This document shows, piece after piece, positions 2,336 through 12,299 of a stretch of DNA of 12,299 bases. This DNA is from Candidatus Jordarchaeales archaeon (GTDB taxonomy: Archaea > Asgardarchaeota > Jordiarchaeia > Jordiarchaeales > Freyrarchaeaceae). The position numbers were made by a program, and so were the translations under genes. Location: NCBI GenBank assembly GCA_038858525.1, contig JAWCFL010000047.1:1-12299 (forward strand). The letters are read 5' to 3'. Position 1 is the first letter of the stretch. Every line of letters begins with the position of its first letter. The notes below the pieces were generated by a model that worked only from the letters and a program-made list of their open reading frames with translations, searched no databases and had not been told where the DNA came from.

Positions 2336-2581
2336 ATGAAGACGATCAAGGTTAGCGATGAAACATACAGGAAGCTCTGCGAAAAAGCAGGAAGACTTCA
2401 GGCTGAGCTGAAAAGACCAGTATCAATCGATGAAACGATACGTTACCTGCTGGAAGAGAAGAAAAAAAGCGGTATCTTGGAGCTAGCCGGAAGCTGGGAG
2501 CTTAAAGATGATGAAGCTGAGGAGATATTTTCCTCGCTCAGAAGGTGGTGGGGCAGTTGGAGGACGGAAAGGTCTGCCTAG
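2336..2581 (+). CDS. vapB: VapB-type antitoxin (ribbon-helix-helix-like N-terminus)
   Basis: 81 aa. The N-terminus has a strand-helix-helix pattern (MKTIKVSDETYRKL...SIDETIRYLL) and the C-terminus is acidic/aromatic (LAGSWELKDDEAEEI). It overlaps a downstream PIN-domain gene. Confidence 0.8.
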   Translation: MKTIKVSDETYRKLCEKAGRLQAELKRPVSIDETIRYLLEEKKKSGILELAGSWELKDDEAEEIFSSLRRWWGSWRTERSA

Positions 2582-2967
2582 ATTCGGATGTGCTCATAAG
2601 CTACCTTAGGGGTAAAAGCGCGGCGGTCGACGATGTACGCAGGCTTGAGGAGGAGGCAGTTACCTTATCAACGACTTCGATAAACGCCTTTGAGGTTTTT
2701 TACGGCGCCTATAAAAGCGGAAGGAGGATGAACGTGGAAAGCGCCATTAGGCTTATGGAGAGGCTCGTGATCCTCCACTTTGACAGAGAAGCCGCTGAGG
2801 CCGCAGGAAGAATTCTAGCCCAGCTCGAGGCAAAAGGAGAGTTAGTGGAGTTTAGAGACGTGCTTATAGGGGCAACTTGCCTAGTTAATGGGTACACCAT
2901 AGCCACTTGGAACGCCAAGCACTTCAGGAGGATCCCTGGCTTAAAAGTTATTGAGCTGCAACGCTGA
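2557..2967 (+). CDS. vapC: VapC-type PIN-domain ribonuclease toxin
   Basis: PIN motifs CLDSDVLI, INAFEV, FRDVLIGAT and TWNAKHF are present. The likely start is TTG 2557, 6 nt after GGTGGTG; the ORF track gives GTG 2545. Confidence 0.92.
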   Translation: MEDGKVCLDSDVLISYLRGKSAAVDDVRRLEEEAVTLSTTSINAFEVFYGAYKSGRRMNVESAIRLMERLVILHFDREAAEAAGRILAQLEAKGELVEFRDVLIGATCLVNGYTIATWNAKHFRRIPGLKVIELQR

Positions 2968-3019: not shown

Positions 3020-3029
3020 TGTCGTCTTC

Positions 3030-3046
3030 GAAAATGATATTTTAAG
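3030..3046 (+). promoter_or_regulatory. BRE/TATA candidate for the AAA-vWA-SMC operon
   Basis: GAAAATGATATTTTAAG has a purine-rich BRE-like segment followed by an AT-rich TATA-like box. Its position favours TTG 3077 (after GGAGGT 3068-3073) over TTG 3050 as the start. Confidence 0.45.
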
Positions 3047-3049
3047 AGT

Positions 3050-4771
3050 TTGGATAAGAAATTTTGGGGAGGTCCTTTGTCGTCTGAGATTCTTCGCAGG
3101 AAAGTGCTGGATGTGATTAACATAGTCGAGAGCCATGGACTCTTTGTACACGACAGCAGGCTGGTCGTCAGGTGTGGAGATGGAGAGGAGATTAGAGTTT
3201 TGGAGATGCCGCTGGTCGTCACGTTGGCTGTCCTCAACGCTTTGGTTCCTAGGGGGGCCATGCTGCTTTACGGCGGACACGGCGGGGGCAAGACGACGCT
3301 GGCGAAGGTTTTGGGGCGCATGATGACTGGCGCCTATCTTTCAGATGTGGAGGAGGCCATAGTGCGCGGGCACCCTCAACTCACAGAGGAGAAGATGATA
3401 GCAACCCTCAAACCCGGACGCTTACTGAAGGACGGAGTGGAGGAGGTGGTGTGGCGCAGGTTCGTTACTAGCTTCTGGAAGATCGTGGATGAGGTCAACA
3501 GGCTCACACCCTACACCCAGAACATTCTTCTCTCTCTCCTCGCCGAGGGGAAGGTGAAGTTCTATGATGCGGTCTATGAGTGCGACCACTTTGTCCTTTA
3601 CGCGACCATGAACCCCCAGGACCCTGGAACGTTCGAGGTGGGGCTTCCATTCCTTGACAGGTTCGGCATAGCGGTGCCCATAACGATGCCGAGCCTCACC
3701 GAGATCCCCTTCATTCTTGCAGGGCAGGACGAGAAGCTGTATGGCTACGACCCGTATTACCAAGTCCCCCAAGTGCTGAGCATGGAAGAGCTGGTCTCCA
3801 CCTGGCGGCTGGTTGACGCCATCCCAGTAGACGAGGAGGCAAAGTTATTCGTGGGTAACCTCATGTCAGAGTTCTCTGTCTGCGAGAGGACATCGAAGGA
3901 AAACGTGGCCATCCTCAGACCGGATACAGGCCTCTGCGACGGGTGCCACTTCAACGTTGAAAAATCAGTATGCAACAAGGTTGTGACGCCTCTCAGCGTG
4001 AGGGCTGCTAAGGACATTTTAAGGTACTCTAAGGCGTTATCTTGGCTCCTTGGACTGGAAAAGGTGACCGTTGACGTGGTTTATGCCGTAGCGCCCTACG
4101 CGATATGGCACAGGGTTAGATACCCGGAGAAGCTCATCAGGGAGGAGCCATACTACGGGGACCAGTTGAAGTTCACGTTGAACATTGTGAGGCTTGTGAG
4201 GGAGAGGTTTGCGGCGAGAAGAAAAGCTCTGGAGATCTTTGAGAAATTCAAAGTGGGGGAGGGAGACGAGAAAGAGATGAGGATGCTTGAGGAGTGGGGG
4301 AGAAGCGACGTGGTGGTCAAGGTGGAGGTGGCGCCGAAGGCTCGCTACTTCGCCAGCAGGGAGTACAGGAAAATGATAGAAATGCTGAAAATGGCCTTGG
4401 GGTCTGGAAGCGTCGAGAAGCTTGAAGAAGTCAGAGACGCCGTTGTGTCAGAGGGGGGCATACCGAACAGGTTTGAGATACTGCGCATGGTCGAGGAGAA
4501 ACTTTACGAGAGTACAAAGAGAAGCTACAAGGTGACTTTCATAGACTGGAAAGCGATATACGGTAGGCTCGCTGAAAGGTTCCCCGAGCTACAGGAGCCG
4601 CTCAAGCACACCTTCAACCCTCCAAAGTCAAGGTTCATTAAGAGCCGGGAACTCATCATAGCTGTTCACACCACGGGAAGGCATGAGGATGACCCAGTAT
4701 TCATAGAGGTGGCTGGAGGGAGAAAAGCGGAGGAAGTGTCAAAGCTTATAAAGGAGGCTTGTGGAAGCTGA
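3050..4771 (+). CDS. MoxR-like AAA+ ATPase with Cys-cluster insertion and about 200-aa C-terminal extension
   Basis: Walker A is LLYGGHGGGKTT, the H2-insert region is GHPQLTEEK, Walker B is KIVDEVNRL, sensor I is ATMNP and the arginine finger is PFLDRF. The Cys cluster is C278/C296/C299/C308. A vWA gene lies directly downstream. The true start may be TTG 3077. Confidence 0.88.
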   Translation: MDKKFWGGPLSSEILRRKVLDVINIVESHGLFVHDSRLVVRCGDGEEIRVLEMPLVVTLAVLNALVPRGAMLLYGGHGGGKTTLAKVLGRMMTGAYLSDVEEAIVRGHPQLTEEKMIATLKPGRLLKDGVEEVVWRRFVTSFWKIVDEVNRLTPYTQNILLSLLAEGKVKFYDAVYECDHFVLYATMNPQDPGTFEVGLPFLDRFGIAVPITMPSLTEIPFILAGQDEKLYGYDPYYQVPQVLSMEELVSTWRLVDAIPVDEEAKLFVGNLMSEFSVCERTSKENVAILRPDTGLCDGCHFNVEKSVCNKVVTPLSVRAAKDILRYSKALSWLLGLEKVTVDVVYAVAPYAIWHRVRYPEKLIREEPYYGDQLKFTLNIVRLVRERFAARRKALEIFEKFKVGEGDEKEMRMLEEWGRSDVVVKVEVAPKARYFASREYRKMIEMLKMALGSGSVEKLEEVRDAVVSEGGIPNRFEILRMVEEKLYESTKRSYKVTFIDWKAIYGRLAERFPELQEPLKHTFNPPKSRFIKSRELIIAVHTTGRHEDDPVFIEVAGGRKAEEVSKLIKEACGS

Positions 4772-6432
4772 TAGAAAGAAGGGGAAGGAAAAGAGGGGAA
4801 AGTAAGAAGATTCTCTCAGCGGTCAGGAGGGGAGTTTCATTAGCTGTCAGTGACTTCTATTACCCCCCAGTTCCCGATCCTGAGGTCAGAGTAGGAAACG
4901 TGAAGGAAACATTATTTTATATTACGGAGAACGATTGGAAGATACACATAAACGTCAGGGATGTGCCCCCGCTGAGGGGTGATGAACTTGTGGCCTTTTT
5001 TCGCTCGTTGTGTAGGCACGAACTGGGGCACTATGCGGTCTGCCCATACGATGTTCCCACATCGACGCTCATAACTGGTAGTGCCGCCAAGCAGGTTGGA
5101 ACAGACCTAGCAGGCTTCGTCGCAAACTTTTTCTCAGACCTCGTCGTCGACAACTATCTTTTCGAGAGATACCCTGATGAGACCGTGTGGGAGAAGAAAA
5201 TCACCGTGAACTATGCTCGTAGCACTGGTTCGCCGAGCAAGGTGTGGATGGTGCTCGTTAGGTGCTACGAGAAAATGTTGAAAGTTAAACTCGCGAAAAA
5301 TTTAGAGACATCCAGAGAGATAGACAAAGCTGCATCGAGAATAGTTAGGACAATTAGGAGAGGGGGAGTGCTGAATGAGGAAACATGGCCGAGGAAAGTG
5401 AGGAAGGTGGCTGAGATACTTAAGCCTTTCTTGGAGGAATTAAGAGAGCCGACGGCTGGTGTTAAGGGAGAATATAAGGAGACGCCTACAGGCAAACGTG
5501 TTTTTGTTCCAGAGGATGTCGCGAGGACTATGAGGGGAAATCCCTTGAAGCCGCCGCTTAGAAGAGAAGGTGAAAGCTGCGAGAAGGCGGCGGCGAGGCA
5601 TGCCGAGAGAGGTGAGAGGCTTGAGGGCTTCGTTTATGCTGCAAGGTCGGCTGGGCTTGTTTCAAGTGAAAAGGAGGCATTAAGGGCTTGGTATAGGGCG
5701 AAGGCTGACATGAAGATTAATGTTAAGCTTAAGTCGGCGAGGAGGAAGGGAGCGGAGGTGCAGGTTTACCCCGACATATGGAGGATTGACGACCCGATCG
5801 AGGAGCTCGACATACCTCTCTCTATACAGTCATTCCCTAGAATGATACCGGGCGTGACGACGAAGAAATGGATTAAGAGTTCAGGTGAGAGTGGAGGGAG
5901 GGAGGGGGCGCCGCCCGACATGTTAATAGTCCTGGATAGTTCGGGCAGCATGGAGGGCTTTGGAGATGGGACACCTTTCGATCTAGCGCTCATAGCAGCT
6001 TTCTCAGCCCTCAAATTCGCGATGAGCAGGAGCTGTAAGGTTGCAGCCATCAACTTCTCCGATAGAGCGATAGAGTGCAACTGGACCAGGGACAGAATCA
6101 ACATTGAGAACACGCTTCTAGCGTATCAGGGTAACGGCACCGTTCTCCCCGTGAAAAACATAATAGATATCGCGATGAAAAACAATTCAAAGATCCTGCT
6201 ACTAATAATAACGGACACCGAGATATCTAATTGGGACGAGGCCGTGGAAGAGCTTGGGAAGCTTGCATCTATAGGGCATACCGTGTGCATTTTCTTCATA
6301 GGGGGACGCGCAGGTGAGCTGGAGGAGAGACATAAGAAGCTCGTTTCTGCCGGGGGGAAAATTTACACTATTCCGAGCGTTAAGGAGCTACCAGACGTAG
6401 TGATAGAGGAAGTTAGGGGGCACTATATATAG
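4759..6432 (+). CDS. HExxH putative metallopeptidase domain fused to C-terminal vWA (MIDAS) domain
   Basis: RHELGH (H87-H91) is followed by ANFFSDLVVDN (N123, D127, D131). MIDAS residues are LIVLDSSGSM (D393/S395/S397), GNGT (T461) and LIITD (D486). The gene overlaps the AAA gene by 13 nt, and its exact start is uncertain. Confidence 0.85.
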   Translation: MWKLIERRGRKRGESKKILSAVRRGVSLAVSDFYYPPVPDPEVRVGNVKETLFYITENDWKIHINVRDVPPLRGDELVAFFRSLCRHELGHYAVCPYDVPTSTLITGSAAKQVGTDLAGFVANFFSDLVVDNYLFERYPDETVWEKKITVNYARSTGSPSKVWMVLVRCYEKMLKVKLAKNLETSREIDKAASRIVRTIRRGGVLNEETWPRKVRKVAEILKPFLEELREPTAGVKGEYKETPTGKRVFVPEDVARTMRGNPLKPPLRREGESCEKAAARHAERGERLEGFVYAARSAGLVSSEKEALRAWYRAKADMKINVKLKSARRKGAEVQVYPDIWRIDDPIEELDIPLSIQSFPRMIPGVTTKKWIKSSGESGGREGAPPDMLIVLDSSGSMEGFGDGTPFDLALIAAFSALKFAMSRSCKVAAINFSDRAIECNWTRDRINIENTLLAYQGNGTVLPVKNIIDIAMKNNSKILLLIITDTEISNWDEAVEELGKLASIGHTVCIFFIGGRAGELEERHKKLVSAGGKIYTIPSVKELPDVVIEEVRGHYI

Positions 6433-6449
6433 TATAGGTAGGTGGGACG

Positions 6450-7265
6450 TTGAGCGGTTGGGACTCTAAGGTTTCCAAGGCAGCCCTATCTTGCTGCAGG
6501 AGGAGCCTTGATGCCCTAAAGGTCGTTCTTCAAGCGTGGCTTAACAGAGGGAAGCTGGAGGAGAGGAAAGTTCGACCGATAAGCAAGGTAGTCGTAGTTG
6601 CTGATGAGGGTATGATGGCGAGAGAGGCCGTCGGGGAGCTCCTGAAGGAGATGGGTGTTAAGTTCAGAAAGTCAGAGGGACAAGGACGGGTTGTCATGAC
6701 GGTTGATGGAGGGGGTGAAAGCTTCATCATAGAGGTGGTGGAGGGGGGCGAGGCGCAAGGCGGCGATGGGTTAACGCTGAGGGTTAGCAAGCCTGGTTTC
6801 GCTGAGAGAGTGGAGGCGTTAGGTGTTTTGGCGTCTGAGCTCGGAAATTTTGACCTGAGGAGCGTCGCCGAGGCTTGTGATGGATTCACGACGCTGGACG
6901 TTGTTAGGCTAGTCCAGTTTGCTGCTTCACGAAGCCTTGCTGATGGGAGGGATAAGGTGGAGGAGGACGACTTCATGGAGGGAGTCGCTGTTCTGCAGAG
7001 GAGGATAAACGTCTCTGAAACTCTTCCCGATGACCTCTCGGAGCAACTCTACCTTATGGCGGTCAGTGAAGGTGGTGACGGGTTCTCGGAGCTCGTCCAC
7101 CGAGTTAACGCCGGAGAGAAGCTTGACAGGAGGCTTGAAAAAATGCTTGCAAGATACTCGTTCATACTACTCGACGAGCCTGAAAAAAGAGTAGTCAAGC
7201 TCGCCAAGGCTAGAGCGAGCTATGAAAGGCTGAAAAAGGCTTTTGGAGGCGGACAGCGAAGTTGA
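6450..7265 (+). CDS. Degenerate (probably inactive) classic-clade AAA+ protein that retains the helical lid
   Basis: Residues ~110-185 (LRVSKPGFAERVEAL...FDLRSVAEACDGFTTLDVVRLVQFAASRSLADGRDKVEEDDFMEGV) follow the Cdc48/PAN/FtsH lid pattern P-x-x-x-x-R...DL-x-x-LA-x-x-T-x-GFSGADI...EAA...V-x-x-x-DF. No GxxxxGKT or hhhhDE motif was found. The start is TTG 6450 with RBS AGGTGG. Confidence 0.65.
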   Translation: MSGWDSKVSKAALSCCRRSLDALKVVLQAWLNRGKLEERKVRPISKVVVVADEGMMAREAVGELLKEMGVKFRKSEGQGRVVMTVDGGGESFIIEVVEGGEAQGGDGLTLRVSKPGFAERVEALGVLASELGNFDLRSVAEACDGFTTLDVVRLVQFAASRSLADGRDKVEEDDFMEGVAVLQRRINVSETLPDDLSEQLYLMAVSEGGDGFSELVHRVNAGEKLDRRLEKMLARYSFILLDEPEKRVVKLAKARASYERLKKAFGGGQRS

Positions 7266-10200
7266 GCGCATTCAGGCTGAAGTCTCTTTCTTTGAGAAAC
7301 TTTCTCACCTACGAATACGAGTCTTTAGACTTTGTAAGGGAGGGGATGATTGTCTTTATAGGCGGCAACGGGACAGGTAAAACCAGCCTCTTCAACGCCT
7401 TAAGGTTTGTCCTCGGATCAAACCAGAAGGATCAGAGGTACAAGTCTTGGAGCGAGTTCATAAATAACCGTGGCAACGCTAGGTCAGGGTGGGTTGAAGC
7501 GGTTTTCGAGGGGGATGGTGAATCGGTCAAGCTGAGGAGGGAGGTAAGGCGCGGAGAGGCTCCAAGGTTTTATGTCGATGGAAGAAGGGTTAGCGCGGAT
7601 GAGTTCAAGGAGATCGTGCGCGTTAAGCTGGGCGTTGACCCAGACAACCCTTTAGTTTTCGTTCCCCAGGGGCGGGTTGACGCTGTCAAGGAAATGGAGC
7701 CCGTGAAGCTGAGGGAGTTCGTGGAGGAGCTTGTCGGGCTGGCGGATGAAAGGAAGACCATTGACGAGAAAGAAGGCGAGTTTAGAGAAGCGCTGAGGGA
7801 AGCGGATGTCCTTAAGGAGGACGTCAGAATGATCCAGGAAAGGGTGGCGTTGCTAGCTCCGGAGGTTGAAAGGTGGAGGAGGAGAAAGCAACTAGAGGAG
7901 AAACTGAGGAGGCTTGAGGAGGAGGCTGTCTGGAGCAGGATAGAGGAGGGAAAGGCGAGGCTTAATGAACTTGCGAGGGCTGAGAGTGAGGCGGCGGCGA
8001 GAATGGAGGAAGCGTACGCGGCATTCAGGGAGGCGGCCGAGAGAGTTGAGAGGATGGAGACGGAAAGGAGGGTGGCGAAGAGCAGGATGGATGAGATCGA
8101 CAAGGAGGTTGGAAAGCTAAGGGAGGAGGAGGCGGAACTTAGTGCGAAAATCAAAGAGATTTTGAGGAGGCGGGAGAAGTCGCTGGAGGAAGTCGATAAG
8201 GGGAAAAGGGAGCTCGAAAAGGTTGAGAGAGACATTGAAGATCTGAGGGTGAAGATACGTGAGCTCGAAAACAGAAAAGCGGTGCTCGAGGAAGAAAGGA
8301 TGAGGCTAACAGAGAGGAGAGAGAAGCTTGTGGAGGAGCTTAATAATATTTCTGTGGAGAAGGAGAAGTTTAGAGGATGGGAGACCGAGTGGGTTGCGGC
8401 GAAAGCTGATTTTGAGCGGGCAAAGGAGAAGGCTGAGGCGTCAAACAAGAATAGAAGAATGGCTGAGGATGAGCTGGAGAGAGTGAGGAGGAAAATTTCG
8501 GAGTGCGCTCGAAGGGTTGCTGAACTCGCCGAGAAACTTGAAGGATATGACGAGGAAACCTTAAGGAAGAGGAGGGAGGAGCTAAGAAAGGAAAAGGAGG
8601 AACTTATAGCGAAAAGGAAGGATACCGAGGTAAAATTGAGAGGATGGGAAGAAGAAGCGTTAATGCTTAATAAGAAGGTTTCAAGTCTTGAAGCGCGAGT
8701 ACCAGAACAGGTTAGGAGGCTTGAGGAGGAGGTTAAAAAGAGGGGGATGAACGTTGAGGGGCCACTCCTTAAATTGGTCGAGGTGCCCGACGAGTACGCT
8801 GAAGCTGTTGAAGCTGTCCTTGGTAAGGAGCTGTTGGCATTCGTCGCCTTCAATGAATCCGACTTCTATGTTCTAAACGAGCTCAGAAAGAAGTATGATG
8901 CTTGGTGTACAATATACTTGTCGAAGGGGCTGAAAACGTCTACTTTGAGGAAGATAGATGGCGATGGAGTTGTAGGGTGGCTTGAAGAGGTTTTAAAGTT
9001 CCCCGACGAAGTTGGAGGAGTTTTAAGGGACATTACGCGAAGAACCCTTCTAGTCAAAGAGTACAGAAACGCCCTCGCGCTGAGCGGGAAGTACAAAAGG
9101 TTAAGGTTCGTCACGCTTAGAGGCGACGTCGTAGAGGAGAGGAGGGGTGTTTTGAGGAGCCCCTACAGGAAGCCTAGAGGACTCTTAGCCGTGAAAAGGC
9201 TCATGGAGGAACTGGAGGAAGCACAGAAAAACAGGGACTTGCTGGAAAGGGAGCTTAAAGCCTTGGATGAGAGGCTAAGCGAGGTGAGGAGGGAGGAGGG
9301 GAAAGTCGAGGGGGCGATCATGGTTCTCCCCCACTGGAAAAGTCTTCTGAGCGAGAAGATTCGCCTTGAAGATGAGGAGAAAAAACTGAGAGAGGAGGCG
9401 GAAAAAGCCAGAGAGGAGGCGGAAAAAGCCAGAGAGGAGCTGGAGAAGGCGAGGGCGAAGCTAGTAGAGGTTGAGAGCAGAAAGCCGAAGGATTACGTTG
9501 AGCTTGAAGAGGAGGAGAGAAGGGTAAAGGATGAACTGGTAAAGCTAAATCAGAGCATGAAGAAAGTGGAAGCGGAGTATGGGCGGGCGGTGAAGGAGAG
9601 AGAAAAGGCATTGTTAAGGCTCAAGGAGCTTGAGGTTTTCGGCGAGAGCTTATCGAGGAGCATTGAAGCTTTAATGGAGATTGTCACAATGGGGGACAAG
9701 GAGGCTAGTGACGCAACAAGAGAAATAAAAGGGCTGGAGATAAAGGCTAAGGAGTTGCTTGACGAGAAAAGAAGGCTAGAGGAATTGATTGAGGAGCTAC
9801 TTCAGACGTTGGGAAAGGAAAGAGAAAAAATGAGGGAGATGGGGGAAAGGCTTGGAGACAGGAGAAGTGAGGTAGAAAGGATAAGAAGCGAAGTTAGGAT
9901 TGTGAGGGAAGAAGTGGAGGGATTGGAGAGGGAGGCGGAGAGGAGAGGACTAAGGAAGCCGATTAAAGTTAGGCCGCTCTCCGAGGTTAAAGGTGAAATG
10001 GCTTTCCTTGAGGAGGAGCTTGCAGGTTTAGCGGATGTCGACGAGAAAGTTACGAGAGAGATGGAGGAGCTGGAGGAGAGAAGAAAACACGTGGCCAAGA
10101 AGCTTGGGGAGTTGGAGGAGGAGCTACGGGGCATCTTGGAGGAGCTGGAAAGGAGAAAGAAGGACTACATAGTTAAGCTGGTTGGGGTGGTTGAGGGCGT

Positions 10201-10621
10201 TGAAAAGTCGGTTAACGAGTTGCTTGCAATGGTTAACATGAAGTGTAAGCTGAACGTTAGGGGGGATTACAGTGATGCTGGAGTGGAGGTTAAGCTGAGC
10301 GTTAAAGGCGGGCCCATGATTAACGTTACATCAGTAAGTGGTGGGGAGAGGTGCTTCTTCGCTATAGCCCTTATAGCTGCACTACAGAAAGAGTCACGTG
10401 TCCCCCTCGTTTTCCTAGACGAGCCTTCAACACACCTCGACTCCGAGAACAGCGACAGGACGGGACGGATACTGAAGGAGGTGGCTCGTGAAAGGCAGGT
10501 TTTAGTTCTTGTTCCCGACAAGTATCTGGAGTTCGCCAAGCATGCCGATCAGTGCTATGGAACCGCCACTAAGGGTGTTGGGGGAGCGAGCATCGTTATC
10601 CCAGTCAGAATAGCCGGGTGA
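7262..10621 (+). CDS. smc: Structural maintenance of chromosomes (SMC) ATPase with globular hinge, Smc5/6-related motif set
   Basis: Walker A is GGNGTGKTS (34-42) and the Q-loop is FVPQGRV. Two coiled-coil arms of about 340-350 aa flank a hinge (~497-640, GPLLKLVEVPDEYAEAVEAVLG). The signature is VSGGER (1025-1030), Walker B/D-loop is FLDEPSTHLD and the H-loop is QVLVLVP. Its start overlaps the upstream stop as TTGA. Confidence 0.95.
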   Translation: MSAFRLKSLSLRNFLTYEYESLDFVREGMIVFIGGNGTGKTSLFNALRFVLGSNQKDQRYKSWSEFINNRGNARSGWVEAVFEGDGESVKLRREVRRGEAPRFYVDGRRVSADEFKEIVRVKLGVDPDNPLVFVPQGRVDAVKEMEPVKLREFVEELVGLADERKTIDEKEGEFREALREADVLKEDVRMIQERVALLAPEVERWRRRKQLEEKLRRLEEEAVWSRIEEGKARLNELARAESEAAARMEEAYAAFREAAERVERMETERRVAKSRMDEIDKEVGKLREEEAELSAKIKEILRRREKSLEEVDKGKRELEKVERDIEDLRVKIRELENRKAVLEEERMRLTERREKLVEELNNISVEKEKFRGWETEWVAAKADFERAKEKAEASNKNRRMAEDELERVRRKISECARRVAELAEKLEGYDEETLRKRREELRKEKEELIAKRKDTEVKLRGWEEEALMLNKKVSSLEARVPEQVRRLEEEVKKRGMNVEGPLLKLVEVPDEYAEAVEAVLGKELLAFVAFNESDFYVLNELRKKYDAWCTIYLSKGLKTSTLRKIDGDGVVGWLEEVLKFPDEVGGVLRDITRRTLLVKEYRNALALSGKYKRLRFVTLRGDVVEERRGVLRSPYRKPRGLLAVKRLMEELEEAQKNRDLLERELKALDERLSEVRREEGKVEGAIMVLPHWKSLLSEKIRLEDEEKKLREEAEKAREEAEKAREELEKARAKLVEVESRKPKDYVELEEEERRVKDELVKLNQSMKKVEAEYGRAVKEREKALLRLKELEVFGESLSRSIEALMEIVTMGDKEASDATREIKGLEIKAKELLDEKRRLEELIEELLQTLGKEREKMREMGERLGDRRSEVERIRSEVRIVREEVEGLEREAERRGLRKPIKVRPLSEVKGEMAFLEEELAGLADVDEKVTREMEELEERRKHVAKKLGELEEELRGILEELERRKKDYIVKLVGVVEGVEKSVNELLAMVNMKCKLNVRGDYSDAGVEVKLSVKGGPMINVTSVSGGERCFFAIALIAALQKESRVPLVFLDEPSTHLDSENSDRTGRILKEVARERQVLVLVPDKYLEFAKHADQCYGTATKGVGGASIVIPVRIAG
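9389..9439 (+). repeat. Perfect 21-bp in-frame tandem repeat (about 2.4 copies) in the SMC C-terminal arm
   Basis: AGAGAGGAGGCGGAAAAAGCC occurs at 9389-9409 and 9410-9430, with a partial AGAGAGGAG at 9431-9439. It encodes REEAEKA-REEAEKA-REE. Confidence 0.95.
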
Positions 10622-10636
10622 AGGGAGGGAAAATAA

Positions 10637-11185
10637 ATGATAGACGAGGTCTTGACGATGATCGAGGAGGGGAGAGTTGACCCTGCAGAGGTGAACCTTG
10701 GGGCACTCATAGTGGAGGTGAAAGAGGCAGTTGACCTGCGGGAGTGGAGCGAGAAGTTCTCAAGGCTGGTTCGCTTAGCAAGGCTCAAGGTTAGGGCGCT
10801 GGTTGAGAAAGTTCTTCAGCTAAGAGAGGGGAAGGCTTTCACCTTCGTTTCGCCTTCTTTACCATTGATCCCGTGGATTAGTTTCAGGGAGGCGGAGGTC
10901 GACCTTAAATCGCTCGTCGAGGCGTTCTCGAGAAGAAGACGTGTGGAGGACGAGTATGAGGAGGCGCTGCTAGAGAAAAAGGATGTCGTGGAGCTATGCT
11001 TGGTTGAGGAGAGGCGGCACAGGGAGGATGTTTTGAGGCGAGTTGCCGAGCTTGGAAGGGTAAAAGTGGAGGAGCTGCTCGAGGGTGGTATGCTAGAAAG
11101 AGTCTCAATTTTCGTAGAAGTTTTGAGATTAATAACAGAGGGAGTTCTGGGTTACGATAGGGACACGGGGGAGGTGTACGTTTGA
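10637..11185 (+). CDS. scpA: Short ScpA-like kleisin subunit
   Basis: The N-terminus (GRVDPAEVNL, DLREWSEK...ARLKVRAL) parallels ScpA IDPWDIDI and DLR...LRxKSxxL. The middle has VDLKSLVEAF. The C-terminal winged helix is RVKVEELL...RVSIFVEVLRLITEGVL...GEVYV. It lies directly after smc with RBS GGGAGGG. Confidence 0.8.
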   Translation: MIDEVLTMIEEGRVDPAEVNLGALIVEVKEAVDLREWSEKFSRLVRLARLKVRALVEKVLQLREGKAFTFVSPSLPLIPWISFREAEVDLKSLVEAFSRRRRVEDEYEEALLEKKDVVELCLVEERRHREDVLRRVAELGRVKVEELLEGGMLERVSIFVEVLRLITEGVLGYDRDTGEVYV

Positions 11186-11655
11186 GTGAGCATGAAGCGG
11201 TTTTCGCTGGATTAGCTGTTAGGGGGTGGAGGGGGATTAGCGTCAGCGATTTAGCTAAGACAATGGGGCTTAGAGGGGAGCTTGGAGAATGGTATGCTCT
11301 CAGAACACTAATCGGCGCTGCGAAGTACATGAGGCTCTTAGGGTTAACTCTCAGGTTTAACCCGGTGACGGGGACTTGGATAGTAACGTATCGCAGCAGG
11401 GAGACGGCCGGGGGGGCGGGGCTTCCTAGAAGGTTGAAGGCGACGCTGGCCGCTGTTGTCGAGGCTCAGGGCGGTCGTGGTAGCGCTCTGCTTGAGGACA
11501 TACAGAGGTTGAGGGGGAAAAGCAGGAGGAGTACGCTGGACGACCTTAGGGAGCTCGAGGAGATGGGGCTTGTTGAGCGTGTGGGAAAAAAGGAGTTTAG
11601 GATGGCGAAGGTGCTCGCCCCCTTCTTAGAAGAGGGGACGCAACACGGTTTATAG
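11182..11655 (+). CDS. Tandem winged-helix kite subunit (ScpB/Nse1/Nse3-like)
   Basis: wH1 is ISVSDLAKTMG...LLGLTLRFNPVTGTWIV. wH2 is LPRRLKATLAAVV...LEDIQRLRG...LDDLRELEEMGLVERVG, resembling ScpB LSxAALETLAII...IxxIRG...LxxxGLV. It has RBS GGAGGTG and a TTGA overlap with the kleisin stop. Confidence 0.75.
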   Translation: MSEHEAVFAGLAVRGWRGISVSDLAKTMGLRGELGEWYALRTLIGAAKYMRLLGLTLRFNPVTGTWIVTYRSRETAGGAGLPRRLKATLAAVVEAQGGRGSALLEDIQRLRGKSRRSTLDDLRELEEMGLVERVGKKEFRMAKVLAPFLEEGTQHGL

Positions 11656-12299
11656 TTTCCTGGCCTTCGCCGTCACGTCCTGCAGAACCACGTTAAGCGC
11701 TTTTATCAGTTCCATGTTTGTCGTGTATATTCCGACTGGTTGTGGCGCTGCGACTGCAAGTGCCATTTCCTCGTTGTCCCTGTTTATTATGTAGAGGTTT
11801 GATGGATAATGTCTGAGTTGCACGTTGGGGGGTAGGCTTGCAGGCTGAGCGCCTTTTGTGTCGGTGACTATTATGGTTCTCTGCCTTGCCATTTGCCTCA
11901 GCATGTCTAGCGGCACGTCATCTATTGATGGGACAACCATGGTTACCGTGCTTTTCGTGTTGAGGAGGAATGATTTTATGAGGAGGTCTATGTGGGGCTT
12001 CCCCGCTATTCTTCCGGTGTCCTCGAATGGCTGTGGTTCTGTCTCCTCAGCGAGCTTCGCTATTGCTGATATGGTTTCAAGTGAACGTGAAACGAGGCTC
12101 AAGCCCCTGTCGACTAACTCGGCAACTTGTAGCCCACTGCTCTTTATTAGGGACGAGGATTTTCCTGCGGAGGAGCGCAGAAGCTCGCTGAATAACGATT
12201 CAGTTGAAGAAACGCTCTTCCTCCATTCCTCTAGGCTCTCCCTGAATGATTTTGACGTGGCTTGCTCTGCTTCGCCCGCCGTTCTTGCCAGCTCCTCCG
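11650..12299 (-). CDS. C-terminal part of a long helical protein ending in a TrmB effector-binding-like (degenerate PLD-fold) domain; 5' end outside the window
   Basis: The frame of ORF 11650..12102 stays open upstream to the edge (EELARTAGEAEQATSKSFRESLEEWRK...). The C-terminal part (IAGKPHIDLLIKSFLLNTKSTVTMVVP...TIIVTD...IINRDNEEMALAV) resembles TrmB C-terminal domains. No HKD motif is present. Confidence 0.6.
   Translation of the reverse strand, partial: EELARTAGEAEQATSKSFRESLEEWRKSVSSTESLFSELLRSSAGKSSSLIKSSGLQVAELVDRGLSLVSRSLETISAIAKLAEETEPQPFEDTGRIAGKPHIDLLIKSFLLNTKSTVTMVVPSIDDVPLDMLRQMARQRTIIVTDTKGAQPASLPPNVQLRHYPSNLYIINRDNEEMALAVAAPQPVGIYTTNMELIKALNVVLQDVTAKARKL

Follow-up and report, generated by a model that had tools for sequence, protein, structure and literature searches.

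SMC complexes organise chromosomes in all forms of life, and the loading, release and destruction of their rings are a central question. We know of no dedicated ATP-driven or proteolytic SMC release factor in prokaryotes. In the known MoxR-vWA pairs CbbQ-CbbO, NorQ-NorD, RavA-ViaA and Rea1/midasin, the metal ion-dependent adhesion site (MIDAS) of the vWA protein docks and the MoxR ring applies force. Genes of both kinds come together in the Jordarchaeales locus described here. The window, that is the whole stretch of 12,299 nucleotides that was analysed, is an entire 12.3-kb contig (C47) of an archaeal metagenome-assembled genome (MAG) of 2.09 Mb in 63 contigs. It carries six genes, numbered g1 to g6 from 5′ to 3′, for a MoxR ATPase (g1), a putative zincin-vWA protein (g2), a pseudo-AAA protein (g3), an SMC (g4), a kleisin (g5) and a kite (g6). 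On balance, the evidence leans towards a reading in which two conserved Asgard modules have been joined into one operon in Jordarchaeales and the MoxR-vWA pair acts on SMC complexes.

In TACK and Asgard archaea, two and sometimes three SMC-kleisin-kite operons have been described, the extra ones being termed 'SMC5/6-related', and Jordarchaeum was reported to have three SMCs and one adjacent pair of an 'Nse4-related' kleisin and an 'Nse1/3-related' kite (van Hooff et al., bioRxiv 10.1101/2024.01.07.573240). No AAA, MoxR or vWA neighbours are mentioned in that study and its supplements. The window's own genome (G000; in our labels G stands for a genome, C for a contig, L for a locus and f for a family, and g36 to g55 are genera) likewise has three SMC-kleisin-kite operons of identical gene order, on contigs C2 and C4 and in the window. 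The C2 operon is canonical, with an SMC that reaches 920 bits on the canonical archaeal SMC model TIGR02169 and partners that match ScpA and ScpB in Pfam. The SMC of the C4 operon scores 657 bits on the same model, and the kite of this operon, at E 7e-29 to Pyrococcus ScpB, is unmistakably an ScpB. As the kites of both other operons are clear ScpB proteins, the window trio is probably the published Jordarchaeum pair with its SMC, a mapping made by elimination. Mapping the trio through the published gene numbers of the Prometheoarchaeum 'SMC5/6-related' genes onto a closed Loki genome (G134) was rejected, as the positions disagreed and G134 probably represents a different species. The window operon shares with archaeal Smc-ScpA-ScpB and the extra operons the order SMC-kleisin-kite, a hinge, ABC motifs, an ScpA-like kleisin and a tandem winged-helix kite. 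It differs from archaeal Smc-ScpA-ScpB in that its SMC lies far below the canonical cut-off and its kleisin and kite escape Pfam.

The first two genes resemble the pairs CbbQ-CbbO, NorQ-NorD, RavA-ViaA, CoxD-CoxE and Rea1/midasin in that an AAA_5/MoxR gene lies directly ahead of a MIDAS vWA gene, and differ from them by an insert with four cysteines and a long C-terminal extension in g1. The position of the HExxH motif of g2, N-terminal to the vWA domain, resembles the layout of DUF2201_N in DUF2201-type zincin-vWA partners, a language-model lead only. In the literature searched in full text, no SMC client is described for the MoxR-vWA class. 'Ternary' conflict systems also combine MoxR, vWA and a third part, which is an inactive NTPase or an FtsH-type AAA protein (Kaur, Burroughs, Iyer, Aravind 2020, PMC7159879) and in the window an inactive AAA protein of the classical clade. 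The window locus differs from these systems by having neither a variable effector nor a patchy distribution, and its third component travels with the SMC operon and not with the MoxR pair; the word SMC is absent from PMC7159879. A previous sequence-only reading of the window had known of no described system of this architecture, and our full-text searches equally found no link of a MoxR-vWA or AAA protein to an SMC complex. The locus appears to encode an SMC complex with a predicted Cdc48-derived fourth subunit that is genetically tied to a MoxR/zincin-vWA pair; both parts are of known kinds, and their combination is not described in the literature searched.

Two conserved units and their linkage in Asgard archaea

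The comparative survey covered 400 Asgard genomes, which are related and not independent samples. The sequence-only reading had divided the operon into a MoxR-vWA-pseudoAAA trio and an SMC trio. This division was wrong, the conserved units being g1-g2 and g3-SMC-kleisin-kite. At every locus examined, including those of the most distant carriers of the g3 C-terminal domain, the SMC gene lies directly 3′ of g3. Since g3 keeps this place even where the MoxR-vWA genes are elsewhere, the pseudo-AAA gene belongs with the SMC unit. The four-gene unit is present in Jord-type genomes, in family f5, in 45 Thor-type loci, in Loki-type genomes, in f30 and in those most distant carriers. Matches to the kite profile were found in 223 of the 400 genomes, nearly always once, and in 121/135, 14/14 and 68/89 genomes of the large Asgard classes.

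The MoxR-vWA pair is a separate conserved unit that is essentially restricted to Asgard archaea. The order g1 then g2 holds in nearly all loci examined (genome G310 has g2 elsewhere), and g2 has matches in 218 of the 400 genomes, mostly one match each. A search of one genome per species (185,579 species) gave 227 relatives of g1. The best 80 of these 227 are all from archaeal MAGs, and those with a phylum label belong to Thor-, Prometh-, Hermod- or Hodarchaeota. One contig alone departs from this: it carries the label Thermoproteota and belongs to the window's own family. At three Loki-type loci (L126, L129 and L140), about 3-4 kb of other genes split g1 from g2.

The link of the MoxR/zincin-vWA pair to SMC-kleisin-kite genes recurs beyond the window. 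A colinear layout as in the window was found in the same genus, in the same family (f1), in f5 and on one further Jordarchaeales contig, and thus in two families. The two units are divergent in 45 of 45 Thorarchaeota-type loci whose flanks are long enough, the starts of the longest open reading frames (ORFs) being a median of 153 bp apart, and also in f30, where the starts are about 0.8 kb apart and a small ORF lies between them. In Lokiarchaeia the units are unlinked, being separated by 92 kb or about 1 Mb or placed on different contigs. The sequence-only reading had named unlinked halves in most related genomes as an outcome that would speak against it; this is the situation in Lokiarchaeia, and in Jord-, f5 and Thor-type genomes the halves are linked.

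Some Loki genera have the pair beside another SMC operon. It stands tail-to-tail with canonical SMC-ScpB in g43 (four genomes), g51, g52 and g39, at distances of 6 to about 800 bp (several of 25-45 bp), and in g41 it is rearranged and lies within 5 kb of canonical SMC-ScpB. Both units occur in closed Lokiarchaeial genomes of the survey, and cultured Lokiarchaeia probably have them as well. At the level of families, f1, f5, f12, f16, f18-f21, f30 and f31 have g2 as well as the kite and 14 other families have neither, with f2, f24, f25 and f28 as exceptions.

In the SMC tree, g4 and its orthologs form one clade with a support of 99, apart from the canonical and second SMC types. The order within this clade follows taxonomy (Jord-type with f5; Loki-type; Thor-type with f30), and on the evidence of the tree the SMC unit is vertically inherited.

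Two observations concern the surroundings of the other SMC operons. In the window's genome, the canonical SMC has a gene of the PAC2 family (proteasome assembly chaperone 2) immediately upstream (G000:C2:82640-83482, minus strand), and in Loki genomes a PAC2 gene is located a few kb downstream of g1-g2 (L118:15264-16085; L050:14534-15331). These positions suggest an old synteny block of g1-g2, ScpB-SMC and PAC2 that was broken in some genera. The C4 operon (G000:C4:4324-11909) is convergent to a full-length Cdc48 gene and a gene for a double winged-helix regulator, and DUF790 and TatD genes are found upstream of it.

The six gene products

The sequence-only reading had already named the six products, and all six labels hold against Pfam, ortholog motifs, AlphaFold2 models and Foldseek comparisons (Table 1). 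The identities of g5 and g6 came from structure comparison only.

Table 1. Positions of the predicted genes and of the promoter-like element in the window
Feature	Position	Strand	Basis or remark
Antitoxin-like gene and PIN-domain gene	2336-2967	+	PRK13696-type, weak match (antitoxin-like gene)
Promoter-like element CGAAA-N3-ATATTTT (BRE/TATA-like)	3029-3046	+	about 30-45 nt 5′ of the conserved g1 start
g1, MoxR-class AAA+ ATPase, 564 aa	3077-4771 (ORF open from 3050)	+	Pfam, orthologs
g2, N-terminal HExxH (zincin-like) domain and C-terminal vWA domain with MIDAS	4759-6432	+	ortholog motifs
g3, Cdc48/p97-derived single AAA domain with dead Walker motifs	6450-7265	+	first gene of the four-gene SMC unit
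g4, divergent SMC paralog of the 'SMC3 type', comprising ATPase head, hinge and long coiled coil	7262-10621	+	
g5, short ScpA-like kleisin, 182 aa	10637-11185	+	AlphaFold2 model, structure comparison
g6, kite subunit, tandem winged-helix, 157 aa	11182-11655	+	AlphaFold2 model, Foldseek
Convergent ORF, runs off the contig	11650-12297	-	no Pfam match

The g3 family profile matches Cdc48/p97 at 2e-40. In Pfam, g3 of the window, which is shortened by an internal deletion, matches AAA_lid_3 only, and a longer Thor ortholog matches PF00004. The Walker A motif reads GPxGTDF or is more degenerate, with the lysine gone in 34 of 34 orthologs, and Walker B is degenerate. The loss of this lysine together with the degenerate Walker B makes g3 a pseudo-AAA protein rather than an active classical AAA ATPase. 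The hallmark of the family is a conserved C-terminal helical domain with a basic tail. This domain forms a family of only 109 clusters among 1.84 billion representative proteins, and a profile search found no informative relative of it among PDB sequences. A complex prediction of g3 with the SMC head halves and the kleisin gave a score of 0.00; run without controls, it allows no verdict and is evidence neither way. At locus L040 (7654-8492; genome G115, same family), g3 is split into two overlapping ORFs by a frameshift or an assembly error, and this contig, shared with L067, stops inside the SMC gene.

By its motifs, g4 is a true hinge-bearing SMC with intact ABC motifs. It matches SMC_N with 100 bits and SMC_hinge at residues 498-607 (E 4e-12), and the Walker A GK(T), Q136, S1026-G-G1028, D1053-E1054 and D1060 are invariant in 30 orthologs. 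On TIGR02169 it scores 244-249 bits against a cut-off of 729, outside the canonical archaeal family. The g4 family profile can be aligned over its entire length with chains of Smc3 and Smc2. It scores 214-230 bits with Smc3/Smc2 versus 163-169 bits with Smc5/6, and is thus no closer to Smc5/6. With regard to eukaryotic Smc5/6, the fold of g6 matches both ScpB and MAGE/Nse3, the g4 profile scores Smc5/6 below Smc1-4, and the window operon contains no RING or SP-RING genes. At the H-loop position of g4 (residues ~1079-1090, window 10500-10540), an invariant proline and a two-residue insert were seen across the family. The residues are Q-F-I-L-F-T-P-A-K-S-T in Thor and L-V-P-D-K in the window, and S-L-R and T-L-K in the genome's other SMCs. 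Smc5/6 presumably has I-T-P at this position, a likeness that was not used as evidence.

The AlphaFold2 model of g5 consists of an N-terminal helical domain and a C-terminal winged helix, mostly with a predicted local distance difference test (pLDDT) score above 90, and a disordered linker between them. When its structure was compared with Swiss-Prot entries of the AlphaFold database, the best 30 matches were all ScpA (residues 2-180, E 1.5e-3 to 1e-2). In support of this, its language-model neighbours are SMC_ScpA clusters (0.91). Foldseek against the PDB and VIA-align wide gave mostly generic winged-helix matches for the model; ScpA-C and Scc1-C were included, not at the top. No Pfam family, including SMC_ScpA (PF02616), was matched at E up to 0.01, and the g5 family profile found no kleisin among PDB sequences.

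The kite model has a pLDDT of 85.9 and two winged-helix domains. Its Foldseek matches in the PDB are ScpB (E 5e-6), MAGE-A3, MukE, Nse1-Nse3-Nse4 and JetABC complexes, with E values of 5e-6 to 2e-3. Window g6 has no Pfam match, and its profile found no informative relative among PDB sequences; a Loki ortholog is just above the Pfam ScpB cut-off (28.4 vs 27.4 bits). The start of g6 overlaps the stop of g5 by 4 nt, and the kite gene lies directly 3′ of the kleisin gene in f1, f5, f30, Loki and many Thor loci. Many Thor genomes have kleisin and kite separated by 1.7-11 kb of other genes (e.g. L062, L069, L083 and L095). Thor-type operons (L059-L065 and many of L068-L125) have a further gene 3′ of the kite for a protein of about 120 aa with a TFIIB-type zinc ribbon and a winged helix, which is absent from the window.

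Within the MoxR-vWA pair, g1 matches AAA_5 with 41.9 bits (cut-off 22) and, more weakly, AAA_3 and AAA_lid_2. Its closest solved structure is the MoxR-like ATPase 2r44. The Walker A motif (GGHGGGK), the Walker B motif (DE) and four cysteines are invariant in 13-19 orthologs, and the C-terminal extension comprises about 200 aa. The cysteines are arranged as C-x17-C-x2-C-x8-C between AAA core and lid (residues ~278-308, window 3880-3975) and occur in all orthologs. This cluster looks like a putative zinc-binding insert, which would be unusual among MoxR ATPases.

In g2, the residues H87, E88, H91, Y92 and the P96/D98 motif as well as the MIDAS motif DxSxS (DSSGS) are invariant in 21 orthologs with 33-60% identity. 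The Pfam models VWA, VWA_2 and VWA_CoxE score 17-19 bits, under their cut-offs. The N-terminal domain contains the motif HELGH as part of an invariant HExxHY...P-Y-D pattern, and no metallopeptidase model of Pfam matches g2. Neighbours of this domain in a language model include DUF2201_N metallopeptidase clusters (0.81-0.86), which is a lead only; a word-based protein search returned only close Jordarchaeales relatives annotated as hypothetical.

Operon layout and flanking genes

All six genes are on the plus strand. The intergenic distances of the sequence-only reading (-13, +17, -4, +15 and -4 nt from g1 to g6) proved exact when the ORF coordinates were recomputed, and the six same-strand genes are real. 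The ribosome binding site (RBS)-like motifs that it had seen at most junctions were borne out: a purine-rich motif of the GGAGG/GGTGG type lies 5-13 nt ahead of every downstream start. The promoter-like element, which combines a B recognition element (BRE)-like and a TATA-like part, occurs at the identical place 5′ of g1 at L039 and L040, in genomes of the same genus and the same family. The TTG at 3077 is conserved as the g1 start in two related genomes, and the g1 gene call on a related Jordarchaeales contig has the equal length of 564 aa. Based on both, g1 is probably 9 codons shorter than the longest ORF. An internal promoter at the g2/g3 junction was considered and rejected because the TATA-like run there is not conserved in relatives. 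Runs of five or six T on the plus strand number three, all within g2 (4996, 5128 and 5501), and no T5 run occurs on this strand from 5506 to the contig end. Tight junctions, RBSs, one conserved upstream promoter-like element and the lack of a conserved internal one indirectly support transcription as a single operon.

Between an old-yellow-enzyme gene and g1, the window contains a small antitoxin-like gene and a PIN-domain gene. This pair looks like an inserted VapBC-type toxin-antitoxin module, since a related Jordarchaeales contig (L174) has the same flanks without it. The convergent ORF at the other end of the window is probably only the C-terminal end of a giant protein, as the corresponding gene of L174 encodes more than 1,799 aa.

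Possible function and rival explanations

The Walker A and B motifs of g1, the HExxH and MIDAS motifs of g2 and all ABC motifs of g4 are invariant and hence under constraint. In the favoured reading, the four-gene unit would form a chromosomal ring that entraps DNA or extrudes loops, and g3 would be its dedicated fourth subunit or adaptor. The MoxR-vWA pair may contact this ring physically, the SMC-kleisin complex being its client. The MIDAS of g2 would dock on a client subunit, as in other MoxR-vWA pairs, and the g1 hexamer would then pull on the docked subunit. Its action might serve loading or unloading; the outcome that we infer is ATP-driven ring opening, unloading or disassembly. The invariant HExxH of g2 suggests catalysis or proteolysis. 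This site may cut a subunit, for which the kleisin linker would be the obvious candidate.

It is tempting to go one step further, to an idea that we consider tentative and on the whole unlikely. The MoxR motor and the zincin-vWA protein could be an ATP-driven SMC-ring opener or kleisin cutter of Asgard archaea, with g3 as docking adaptor on the SMC complex, and thereby a prokaryotic functional counterpart of the control of eukaryotic SMC complexes by separase, Wapl or p97. Regulated ring release would then predate eukaryotes and have been built from unrelated parts. The likeness to separase, Wapl-Pds5 and Cdc48/p97 extraction is one of ideas: an SMC-kleisin ring is linked genetically to a protease-like protein and to AAA-type proteins, one of which, g3, is derived from Cdc48/p97. 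Separase, which has a caspase fold, and Wapl have no homology to the window proteins, which makes this an analogy and not a membership.

Several observations weigh against a partnership of the pair with SMC complexes. In most of the sampled Loki genera (g45-48, g53-55 and g36), g1-g2 are beside no SMC gene and have housekeeping neighbours, among them genes for PAS kinase, GatC, HAD, AhpC and PAC2. Where the pair of Loki genomes does adjoin canonical SMC-ScpB, the genes are convergent and the adjacency is therefore not co-transcription. Families f24 and f25 have g2-like matches and mostly lack the kite. In the sister family f2, one of whose members is a closed 3.6-Mb genome, the g3-SMC-kleisin-kite unit is divergent, and neither g1 nor g2 turned up at any place in the genome; the SMC unit thus does not strictly need the MoxR-vWA pair. 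Moreover, the independent linkage events are few, perhaps two, since the colinear and divergent layouts may share one ancestral juxtaposition followed by an inversion. In the f2 unit at L151 (G116:C1:1914694-1919694), g3 has 459 aa, a Walker A motif that is kept (GTGKT) and DN in Walker B, and the SMC has only 835 aa. This one lineage gives a hint that g3 is more ATPase-like where the MoxR pair is missing.

The foremost rival is that the two units are neighbours without partnership, a possibility that we consider rather unlikely. The pair would then serve another client, such as a metalloenzyme or a chromatin or cell-cycle complex, and its position would reflect inherited synteny or shared cell-cycle regulation. 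It is generally known that MoxR-vWA pairs such as CbbQO, NorQD and CoxDE mostly mature or activate enzymes, which agrees with this idea, as do the Loki genomes with unrelated housekeeping neighbours or convergent canonical SMC-ScpB genes and the solitary SMC unit of f2. However, the pair is found next to SMC operons in three arrangements, which involve two different SMC paralogs. We estimate that, with about three SMC loci among some 3,500 genes of a genome, the probability of adjoining one of these loci by chance is well below 1% for each event. In no lineage is the pair accompanied by another conserved gene that could encode its client, and pair and SMC unit co-occur at the level of families.

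A role as assembly chaperone only seems quite improbable to us. Here, g1-g2 and g3 would fold or assemble the SMC holo-complex once, for instance at high temperature, and the HExxH motif would be structural or remove a propeptide. MoxR proteins are, as general knowledge has it, often assembly or maturation chaperones, and g3 as an inactive AAA scaffold would suit such a task. Yet the system is present in mesophilic sediment lineages (Thor and Loki) as well as in hot-spring ones, the invariance of HExxH across all orthologs suggests catalysis, and canonical SMC complexes assemble without such factors.

The sequence-only reading had also proposed an anti-plasmid or antiviral system in which the MoxR-vWA module takes the place of JetD. 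Kite-bearing SMC-family ATPases do act in immunity (Wadjet; review PMC10586767), and kleisin, tandem winged-helix kite and SMC-family ATPase occur together in the window as in Wadjet JetABCD, JetABC being among the fold matches of g6. In addition, the 'ternary' conflict systems (PMC7159879) are likewise built from MoxR-vWA plus an inactive NTPase, and a PIN/antitoxin pair lies just upstream in the window. The SMC of the window is, however, hinge-bearing and not of the MukB/JetC type (JetC models reach about 30 bits or less), and the kleisin is ScpA-like and not MukF/JetA-like. A PADLOC scan returned only generic SMC-head matches, with no hit to JetA or JetD models and none for g2, g3 or the kleisin, and the locus has neither a JetD Toprim nuclease or other nuclease nor a hypervariable effector. 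The distribution is housekeeping-like, with mostly single copies in most genomes of the large classes, stable synteny with housekeeping genes and an SMC tree that follows taxonomy, all of which argues for a chromosomal SMC accessory system and not a Wadjet-like defence. The PIN pair is absent from the corresponding position of a related genome and is hence an insertion. Taken together, a Wadjet- or Lamassu-like plasmid or virus sensor with a MoxR-vWA-zincin effector in place of the JetD nuclease is very improbable.

Asgard archaea are the closest known relatives of eukaryotes. If the link between the MoxR/zincin-vWA pair and the SMC complex is physical, it would bear on the origin of the eukaryotic SMC toolkit and provide a small defined set of proteins for testing regulated opening of SMC rings outside eukaryotes. 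Should the link be only one of synteny, the published picture of archaeal SMC complexes still gains a four-gene SMC unit that includes a pseudo-AAA subunit.

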